From positions 1 to 36,006 of IMG/VR virus record IMGVR_UViG_3300006029_000026: a stretch of DNA of 36,006 nt; one strand, written 5' to 3'. Below, one piece after another: positions 10,893-13,800 of this stretch. Position numbers and translations under genes: made by a program. Every line of letters starts with the position of its first letter. Position 1 is the first letter of the stretch. This stretch comes from a virus (taxonomy: Duplodnaviria; Caudoviricetes). The notes beneath the pieces are model-generated. The model was given only the letters and a program-made list of their open reading frames with translations, was not told the origin of the DNA and made no database searches.

Positions 10893-13800
10893 ATGAGCAA
10901 TAGCACTTTACTGAAGCTGAAAGATGCCGCGGGAAACCTACAACAGTTTAATACCTCTTCAGATTTAGACTATATTAATGTGCAAAGTGCTAATTGGTTG
11001 GCAAGCGCCACCAGTAACTGGTACATGAATACCACTTCTGGTAATTCGGTTGGGTCCCATACAGATACAGTCTACGATCAAGCTCCTGGTGCTCACGATT
11101 CATTATCGATTAGTACAACCACCACGAATCTATATCAAAATTATACAGCGCCATCCGCTCCTACTGTTGTGCCTCTATCTTTTGATGCAGGAGCTGCATA
11201 CGAGATGATACCGACTGATATCAATTCAATTGCTGATGATATCATTTCTTATATTTTTACCAATGATGGTCCAGGGGCTTATAGATTAGCAGTTTCCTCA
11301 CCTGGTGCTGGATGGTCTGCAGAGCTTAGTAATGTATTTACTGATACCAGATCTGATGGTACTACTATTAATTACACGCTTTGGAAAAGAACCTCGATTA
11401 CTGTTCCTACTGCGGTAAGACCTATTAAAATAAAATACGTCGCTTCTGCATTTGCCGGCTTTCAAGAGATGTCGGATGCTGAAATAAAAGAAGCGTTTGG
11501 GTATTATTTAATTGATAGGATATCAACTACAGGCGTTGGTAAGTATCAGTTAAGAAGTTCTGTACAAGGTACGCCAACTGATCCCGGTACATGGGTTACA
11601 AAAGGAACCGCTCTTGATACCAGACAACAGGTTGCAGAAGAAGCATACACAAGAGACAGTACTAACGTCTTTAATAGAGATAGCACACAAAACTTTACTC
11701 GTGACAGTTCACGAGTCAGTACTTTAAATTTTGTACGTACAAGCCAGGTAGCATTCTCCTCGGAGTACACCAGAACAAGTCTTGTCAACTTCTCAGCAAA
11801 CTATATCAGAGAAAGCACTACAGAATTTACTAATAATTTTAATCGTGATAGCACTAGAAATTCTCTACAGACTTTCTTGGGTAACTACACAAGAGTAAGT
11901 CAAACTAGTTTTACTAGTGACAGTACTAGAGTTTCTACCGCGGCATTTAGTAGAAATAGTACAAGAGTATCTAATCTTGATTTTACACGAACAAGAGAGT
12001 CGACGTATCTTGGTAACTACGCTACTACTTATCTCGGTAATTACGTTGGTGGTAACTTTGCTGGTAACTACGAGGGTAACTTTACGGGTAACTATCAGGG
12101 TAACTTTATTGGCGATTACACTGGTGACTTTATTGGTGGCAACTTCCTAGGAGACTATACCGGTAACTTTATAGGTAACTATCAGGGTAACTTTATCGGT
12201 GACTATGCTGGTAACTATGTTGGAGACTTTGTTGGTGGCAACTTTCTTGGCGACTATACTGGTAACTTTATTGGCGGTAACTTCCTTGGTGACTATGCTG
12301 GTAACTTTTTAGGGGATTTTGTTGGCGGTAACTTTCTTGGCGACTATACTGGTAACTTTGTTGGCGGTAACTTCCTTGGTGACTATGCTGGTAACTTTGC
12401 CGGTAACTTTGTCGGAGATTACATTGGTACCCAAAATTATACCAGAACTAGCACTAGATTAAGTCAACGCACGTCTACTGTGAACTATACAAGAAATAGT
12501 CAACGCACCTCGACTGTGAACTATCAACGTACTTCGACTGTGAACTATCAACGTACCTCTACAAGAACTTCGACTGTGAACTATCAACGTACCTCTACAA
12601 GAAGTTCGCTTACATACTTCCTTGGTGACTATGCCGGTAACTACCTAGCTAACTTTACTCGGGTTAGTAATCGTACAAGTACCCGATATTCTACTGTAGA
12701 TTATACTAGAAATTCGCTTGTCCCATATGCTAGAACTTCTACGAGAAGTTCCACTAGGGCTTTTGCTGGTAACTTTGATGGTAACTACGTCGGTGACTAC
12801 CTAGCTAACTTTCTTCGTACTAGCACAAGAACTTCTACTCGGACAAGTACAAGAATACGCGCTCTTCAGGGTGGCAGCGTGCAATATTATGGCGGCTCAC
12901 CAGCATACTTTGGTGGTGGCATTAAGTACTACATTGGAGACTTTGTTGGTAACTTTGCTGGTAACTTTGTAGGGGACTACGCGGCTAACTTTCTTCGAAC
13001 TAGTACTCGTACGATTACTAGAAGTTCAACTAGAGCATTTGCTGGTAACTTTATAGGTAACTATTCTTCTGACTTTATAGGTAACTTTGTAGGCGGTAAC
13101 TTCCTTGGTGACTATGCTGGTAACTACACCGGTGACTACGCTGCTAACTTTACTCGAACTAGCACAAGAAACAGACTAAATGCAACCTATGCAGGCAACT
13201 TTCTTGGTGACTTCGTAGGCGGTAACTTTGTAGGGAACTATACCGGTGACTTCGTAGGCGGCAACTTCCTCGGTGACTTTGTAGGAGGTAACTTCCTCGG
13301 TGACTATACCGGTGACTTTGTAGGTGGCAACTTCCTTGGTGACTATACTGGTAACTTTGTAGGGGACTACGCTAACGAAAATACTAACTTTACTCGAACT
13401 AGTACAAGATCTTCTACTAGAACTTCACAAAGAACAAGCACTGTCGATTACACAAGATTAAGTCAGCGTACGTCTACTGTTAACTATCAACGCACCTCAA
13501 CTAGAACTTCACAAAGAACAAGCACCGTTGATTACACAAGATTAAGTCAGCGTACGTCTACTGTTAACTATACGAGAACTTCACTCAGAACTTCCACGAA
13601 AGATTCTACAGTAAACTTTACCAGAGACAGTACCAGAAACAGTCAAAGAACTTCTACTGTAAACTACACAAGAAATAGTACAAGAGATTCTACTGTAGAT
13701 TATACACGCGTTAGGGCGCAAGATTTTACCCGAACACGAGAAGTTGCATATGCTGGTAACTATGTTGCTCACTATGACGGTAACTATGTAGGTGGTAATT

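Follow-up and report, generated by a model that had tools for sequence, protein, structure and literature searches.

Self-complementary arms of a protein from a T4-like phage probably pair as a giant two-stranded beta-hairpin

The nearest described precedent for a protein chain that leaves a base, runs out along a stem and returns to rejoin that base is the needle of T4 gp37 (domains D10-D11). In its description, D10 comprises residues 811-881 and 1010-1026, the stem residues 882-931 and 960-1009, and the tip residues 932-959 (PMC6957217), giving an order of base, outgoing stem, tip, returning stem and C-terminal segment rejoining the base; the needle is trimeric there, with 50-residue stems, seven His-coordinated irons and aromatic-over-Gly packing (G921/F970). 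Here we describe protein B, a 1,108-residue product encoded in IMG/VR virus record IMGVR_UViG_3300006029_000026, a 36-kb stretch (36,006 nucleotides; the window) that carries the structural module of a T4-like myophage. The same nested out-and-back plan is found for B and its relatives, from covariation registered on end anchors and from the strands and base of a homologue modeled with AlphaFold2 (AF2), and the aromatic-over-Gly packing would have its likeness in B as well. Unlike gp37, B has arms of about 400 residues that are strictly 4-periodic and sequence-complementary, on an unrelated three-repeat base. These arms match in reverse under a pairing code, and we consider it likely that the chain folds into a giant two-stranded antiparallel beta-hairpin in which a doubled Gly would form a 2:1 beta-bulge opposite Val. 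The features of B and its paralog A are as follows.

8796-10883, plus strand: paralog A, 695 aa, of the same design as B, with 45 rungs; recognized as a paralog of B
10893-14219, plus strand: protein B, 1,108 aa, with three-repeat base, giant self-complementary core and C-terminal strand; open reading frame (ORF)
10893-11642, plus strand: base domain of B, aa 1-250, three homologous repeats, predicted MABP-like beta-prism
11643-12854, plus strand: outgoing arm, aa 251-654, about 100 tetrapeptide units, forming 99 gap-free rungs with the return arm
12051-12428, plus strand: 30-unit G block with six extra-Gly units (GNFAG and five GNFLG); partner 13386-13745
12237-12404, plus strand: 7-unit tandem duplication in the outgoing arm, period 90 nt, 93% nucleotide identity at lag 7, found by TRF; partner 13410-13565
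12435-12614, plus strand: 15-unit R block, TSTV at 12471, 12507, 12531 and 12567; partner 13185-13376
12855-12938, plus strand: turn or tip, aa 655-682, Gly/Tyr-rich, at the center of the register
12939-14156, plus strand: return arm, aa 683-1088
13185-13376, plus strand: 15-unit G block with four extra-Gly units
13386-13745, plus strand: 30-unit R block, TSTV at 13434, 13470, 13518, 13554 and 13650, DSTV at 13602 and 13686, TREV at 13734
13410-13565, plus strand: matching 7-unit tandem duplication in the return arm, period 84 nt, 93% nucleotide identity at lag 7, found by TRF
14157-14219, plus strand: conserved C-terminal strand (TIETYTLYVR-type in the family consensus), predicted to complete the third repeat of the base

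A scripted parse divides B into 205 units, each consisting of a triple (positions 1-3) followed by a junction residue (position 4). The initial annotation, which had been made from the letters of the window, proposed that every TSTV unit lies opposite a GNFxG unit with an extra Gly, and the parse reproduces this throughout B. TSTV occupies units 4, 7, 9 and 12 of the 15-unit R block (aa 515-574), with GNF(L/V)G at reverse positions 4, 7, 9 and 12 of its partner (aa 765-828), and units 5, 8, 12, 15 and 23 of the 30-unit R block (aa 832-951), with GNFLG at the same reverse positions of aa 387-512. YSTV599 pairs with GNFLG735, DSTV904 and DSTV932 both lie opposite NFIG preceded by NYQG, and the last two GNFxG units, GNFAG387 and GNFLG968, lie opposite TREV and TRES, respectively. 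All nine of the nine TSTV units are opposite a five-residue GNF(L/V)G in one antiparallel register centered near aa 669 (hypergeometric p = 2.5e-10 among 92 G/R pairs). In a scan of registers the tip-centered one gave 9 matches, the next antiparallel one 4 and the best parallel one 5, while shuffles within 10-rung windows, which keep block composition, reached 11 doubled-Gly junctions opposite Val in 0 of 20,000 trials and never reached the observed pair score of B. At the level of residues, the extra Gly at the junction faces Val, and NFL sets its Phe opposite the Ser of TST; the most apt form of the rule is Val opposite Gly-Gly (V:GG), with TSTV as its commonest context. The 12 extra-Gly junctions of B leave the register unbroken over 99 rungs, a 2:1 pattern visible in the sequence itself. 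The feature had been placed at 12003-13742, which lies within it and cuts it short: the paired arms run from 11643 to 14156, and TRES and its partner fall outside the narrower span. Recurrence of the rule in A was correct for both GNFxG units, which face TSTV (9924 with GGNFVG at 10446; 10020 with GGNFLG at 10347), and fails at the third TSTV (aa 345, position 9828), which faces NYSG-GFAG with no extra residue.

The initial annotation had likened the match to compensatory base pairs, and out-of-sample tests in homologues support both this covariation and the antiparallel pairing. Searches with the N-terminal domain collected 83 distinct family members, 70 of which have both end anchors and fall into 39 clusters at 70% base identity. 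For 32 of the 37 representatives other than A and B (those with at least 6 in-phase units), the arms were paired by the two end anchors alone, with no optimization. The summed excess mutual information was 0.93 at the central offset and 0.80 and 0.72 at the two i±2 diagonals; elsewhere it was at most 0.43 at even offsets, and 0.12 to 0.33 in the same phase one or two units off. A central peak with i±2 flanks is the pattern expected of antiparallel neighbors with diagonal contacts, and we infer that the central offset is the hydrogen-bonded one. Across this register, junction faces junction (R:G, R:S, V:GG), center faces center (F:S, F:R, Y:Y, S:Y) and position 1 lies opposite position 3, with D:N on the diagonal. 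Observed junction pairs in the 32 homologues exceeded expectation for R:G (164 versus 107), G:R (96 versus 50), S:R (51 versus 20) and R:S (50 versus 22), while R:R was depleted (7 versus 61). The same held for the centers R:F (62 versus 21), F:R (47 versus 14) and Y:Y (239 versus 184), with S:S absent (0 versus 7.6), and on the position-1 diagonal D:N was enriched (91 versus 51) and D:D depleted (3 versus 36). The junction-junction signal, for which an earlier anchor test with 22 homologues was underpowered (z 0.4), reached z 20.8 with 32 homologues and longer arms. When each return arm was replaced by that of another homologue (28 homologues), the score fell from 1.54 for the true arms to 0.86±0.06, and none of 500 such swaps reached the true value.

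A pairing matrix learned from the homologues, excluding A and B and omitting any doubled-Gly term, selects the register of B at 1.17 bits per rung; of 278 other antiparallel registers none exceeds 0.45, and no parallel register exceeds 0.14. Folded with this matrix, B gives 99 rungs without a gap, and A gives 45 with one gap. Among the 98 junctions of B are 58 G:R, 11 GG:V and a single R:R, and its 99 centers include 33 F:S, 29 F:Y, 22 S:Y and 10 Y:Y.

Extension of the bulge rule to relatives placed the extra-Gly junction opposite Val at 36 of 40 sites in 12 proteins: L075 4/4, L076 3/3, L077 3/3, L080:2498 1/1, L099 2/2 and L100 1/2 in a first set, and L086 3/3, L106 11/11, L080:2 6/6, L103 0/1, L087 0/1 and P0025 2/3 in addition. 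Val accounts for 35 of 914 junction sides in the first six proteins, the set for which relatedness was measured, with base identities of 35 to 47%. Two of the misses face TRx-S, as B does with TRES. Near-copies were excluded (L078, L079, L083, L096, L097, L101, L005, L093 with 2/3, and L094 with 0/1), five further GG units of the truncated L080:2 have no partner, and P0025 was found via its base and paired by anchor index alone. Most V:GG loci were fetched with a pattern containing GG, which selects for the GG and not for the residue facing it; L075, L076 and L080:2498 correspond to L007, L008 and L004 of the base-domain search. Where Ser-Val-Tyr stands on the Arg strand, its partner is Tyr-Gly-Phe in 12 cases and Phe-Gly-Gly-Phe in 12 cases. 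Of the two modules accepted here the bulge is one, and it occurs only in a subfamily (among the folded representatives only A, B, L004 and L007 carry it), in which V:GG is a strong tendency and not an absolute law. In-frame NFG-G and NYG-G motifs were not counted as bulges because they add no residue, and the parse returned no 2:1 junction at them. A classic beta-bulge likewise sets two residues opposite one; what differs here is that a sequence-coded bulge module recurs along a ribbon of 100 rungs and has a fixed partner on the opposite strand. The curvature of sheets is shaped, and strain relieved, by bulges and glycine twists (PMC13252360), and it is plausible that the Gly bulge here would set twist or kinks, as the initial annotation suggested.

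The second half of the chain matches the reversed first half four residues at a time, and the chain therefore likely folds back like an RNA stem. We propose an intramolecular two-stranded ribbon with 403 residues per arm, which would measure 113 to 133 nm at an assumed 0.28 to 0.33 nm per residue. One face would be formed by positions 2 and 4, with aromatic, Ser, Arg and Gly residues in large-opposite-small pairs and Arg set across from Gly and stacked on the diagonal Tyr or Phe; the other would carry Asn, Asp, Thr and beta-branched residues at positions 1 and 3. Charge is balanced (68 R+K, 64 D+E). The V:GG bulge may relieve crowding where Tyr follows Val and add local twist. The hairpin would be inserted into repeat three of the base, a pseudo-threefold beta-prism completed by the C-terminal strand.

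A comparison with hhalign recovered three internal repeats in the base, and the AF2 model of the homologue L011 has a confident base and long strands at residues 243-277 and 392-428; its own C-terminal strand closes the base. This strand and a VIA range ending at the C-terminus support the predicted role of the C-terminal strand in B. Fold comparison tentatively matched the base to MABP-type beta-prisms at 7 to 8% identity (MVB12B, 3TOW; the P2 domain of perforin-2/MPEG1, 6SB1; and the C-terminal domains of 2QP2 and 8B6V), with which it shares three internal repeats around a local threefold; unlike these examples, it carries additional helices, lacks a MACPF domain and bears a hairpin that is many times longer. 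A Foldseek search with the L011 model gave no match at E ≤ 0.001 in the viral library or the PDB, and single-sequence AlphaFold prediction of B 515-828 was unusable (pLDDT 34). In many homologues the tip is replaced by inserted domains, and the unpaired center ranges from 5 to several hundred aa.

A relative from a cultured phage is WJE88074.1 of Phage C48C1 (OQ984149), which has the same base (35% identity) and the same downstream gene cassette and shares the code at the stem base over about 15 gap-free rungs. It differs in its length of 3,347 aa and several inserted domains, and its annotation is hypothetical only. Several non-repetitive domains lie between its repeat runs (L072:14980-25023), and it is possibly a branched multi-hairpin.

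The same code could also be read between chains, either as an antiparallel duplex of two extended chains or as three fold-back chains in a gp37-like six-stranded needle, in one variant of which each outgoing strand pairs with the return strand of a neighbor. A self-complementary sequence can pair in trans, covariation does not separate cis from trans, and the T4 gp37 needle is a trimer (PMC6957217) with six strands (PMC7291167). We nevertheless regard this arrangement as unlikely. The base already contains three internal repeats and resembles single-chain pseudo-threefold beta-prisms, and the L011 monomer model closes it with its own C-terminal strand. Tight centers of 5 to 14 residues in several homologues suit a turn. 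A and B contain no His-x-His motif, with only two His in the 838-aa core of B and none in the core of A, and B is therefore needle-like in its working and is not classed as a gp37-type needle; sequence and fold searches returned no gp37 match, and a gp12- or gp10-like collar was not among the matches listed. Prediction of L011 98-430 as a complex of three copies (score 0.00, with the partner fold uncertain) is evidence for neither side.

Several observations weigh against a single intramolecular hairpin built on one strict code. Only 20 of the 37 homologue representatives scored at least 30, and several stopped at 7 rungs or fewer. The bulge rule is not absolute in the reverse direction, since TSTV faces GG in 23 of 28 homologue cases and in two of three in A, where a single Gly lies opposite the third TSTV and opposite four further x-S/A-T-V units; taken alone, A reaches only p = 0.05 (1,001 of 20,000 shuffles). 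The nine matches of B are not independent: they derive from fewer events because each arm carries a duplicated 7-unit module, the two lying at positions that pair, and with duplicates collapsed the p value is about 3e-4, a conservative figure. Finally, the pattern of 4, 7, 9 and 12 of 15 reads the same in reverse, and a parallel register fits it at four of four positions, while a shifted parallel register fits four of five in the 30-unit block. The TSTV rule says little on strand direction because its patterns are largely palindromic. The initial annotation had ranked it as the strongest internal evidence for antiparallel pairing, a rank that belongs instead to the family-wide register scan.

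These parallel fits, together with the frequency with which short aromatic/Gly repeats form solenoids, are what favors a parallel beta-solenoid or cross-beta rod, or local hairpins between adjacent G and R blocks. Such folds are very improbable for B, given the gap between 0.14 and 1.17 bits per rung for the best parallel and the tip-centered register, the at most two TSTV units matched by pairing adjacent blocks, and the odd-even diagonal pattern of antiparallel strands in the homologue signal.

The length of the antiparallel ribbon appears to change on both arms together. Between alleles, chosen examples of paired indels are +4 at out+134 with +4 at ret-139, +4 at out+344 with +4 at ret-348, +20 at out+124 with +20 at ret-136, and +14 at out+97 with +12 at ret-107; many allele pairs are too divergent to read. 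Two alleles with 98% base identity (L062:5491-7950 and L067:5842-7950) differ by one insert of 118 aa, in which a non-repetitive segment separates G units from R units, making it a balanced hairpin in itself. Growth may proceed by duplications or indels matched between the two arms, or a balanced hairpin may be inserted at the tip in a single step. The mirror correlation of pairwise nucleotide identity between arms had no peak at the true register (r = -0.09), and the synonymous-only correlation (0.12) did not rise above neighboring registers; from the missing peak, matched duplication is taken as shown for specific modules only. A nucleic-acid hairpin between the arms was rejected, paired units having 32% reverse-complement identity against 22 to 33% in shifted frames. 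Least probable of all is an origin of the match without selection for pairing, through DNA or RNA structure or through repeat turnover by tandem duplication or gene conversion: although tandem and cross-arm direct repeats with high synonymous identity (13/13 and 15/16 codons versus a 49% background) speak for it, the reverse-complement identity is no better than in shifted frames, the collapsed p value is still about 3e-4, the code and the V:GG rule recur in homologues at 35 to 47% base identity where measured, and the two duplications are equal in unit number and unequal in nucleotide length (90 versus 84).

Two further observations concern the middle of B. In 12615-13184 (aa 575-764), the points at which G and R blocks switch pair with their own copies, as dyads of SSTR-AFAG opposite SSTR-AFAG and of DYLA-NFLR opposite DYAA-NFLR; the cross-arm direct repeats and their high synonymous identity suggest a putative exchange between arms or doubling across an old tip. 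The off-phase linkers TQ (12429-12434) and ENT (13377-13385) exactly face each other, an arrangement resembling the internal loop of an RNA stem.

The register of beta-strands far apart in a chain can seldom be read from sequence; that of B is legible by eye over 99 rungs and was predicted out of sample. The natural compensatory substitutions, matched indels and coded bulge offer a test bed for the energetics of cross-strand pairs and for the stabilization of a free two-stranded ribbon, and they suggest a design grammar for rods of chosen length. A more ambitious view, which we hold tentatively and as somewhat less probable than not, is of a monomeric, nucleic-acid-stem-like beta-ribbon longer than 100 nm, whose register is encoded by a few complementary modules (R:G, R:S, F:S, F:R, Y:Y and D:N) and whose coded V:GG bulge programs twist or kinks, which grows by compensatory duplication and hairpin insertion and can branch like an RNA multiloop, which is finished by a glycosyltransferase/oxygenase cassette, and which could be used for design. 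From the position of the gene we infer a virion fiber with a variable tip, which would sit mid-sequence and not at the C-terminus. The family may be a widespread, unannotated class of candidate fibers in T4-like aquatic phages, to which Phage C48C1, being cultured, gives experimental entry.

In the structural module of the window, baseplate and VrlC-like genes are followed by fiber genes and then by genes for neck, tail, terminase, portal and capsid (named after T4), and the A/B pair sits between the baseplate/VrlC-like and the neck/tail genes. By capsid protein the closest cultured phage is Phage C48C1 (Kyanoviridae, 64.5%). B matches two PHROG families only, both of unknown function; Pfam returned nothing meaningful for A, B or their base domains, sequence searches of the PDB with A and B gave no hits, and the ESM Atlas search returned hypothetical clusters only. 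The papers searched, which excluded supplements and most subscription articles, do not describe the family, the code or Phage C48C1. Nor did the libraries searched contain a description of the hairpin design.

Immediately downstream of B lies a cassette:

14227-16131, plus strand: 154-aa ORF, glycosyltransferase-like protein of 265 aa, and 224-aa protein

This cassette follows the hairpin gene in 31 to 32 of 33 loci with at least 2.5 kb downstream, as it does in Phage C48C1, and a second glycosyltransferase comes next in 13 of the 33 (window region 14227-16947). The Pfam GT2/GT8 matches of the glycosyltransferase are below the cutoff, the 224-aa protein gives only a weak 2OG-Fe(II) oxygenase/Asp-Asn hydroxylase lead, and atlas scores for the cassette are 0.87 to 0.88. 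The core of B has 21 N-x-S/T motifs, and the cassette products may be candidate modifiers or chaperones of the hairpin. In L044, L045 and L046 two family members flank the 154-aa and glycosyltransferase genes; their arms leave the learned code after a few rungs, a possible second dialect.

Other genes of the window carry features of their own. The VrlC-like gene (DUF4815, phrog_358; 676-6474) is split in two, and its first part closes with a Hint/intein-like domain (aa ~1225-1370) and, after it, a short tail. Between portal and prohead-protease genes stands a sulfotransferase-family gene (31568-32350). Just upstream of A, positions 6695-8785 encode a 696-aa fiber-like protein with 12- and 36-residue repeats (TTLRSTLDVTDSA-type), in whose gene TRF found periods of 36, 108, 144 and 288 nt.
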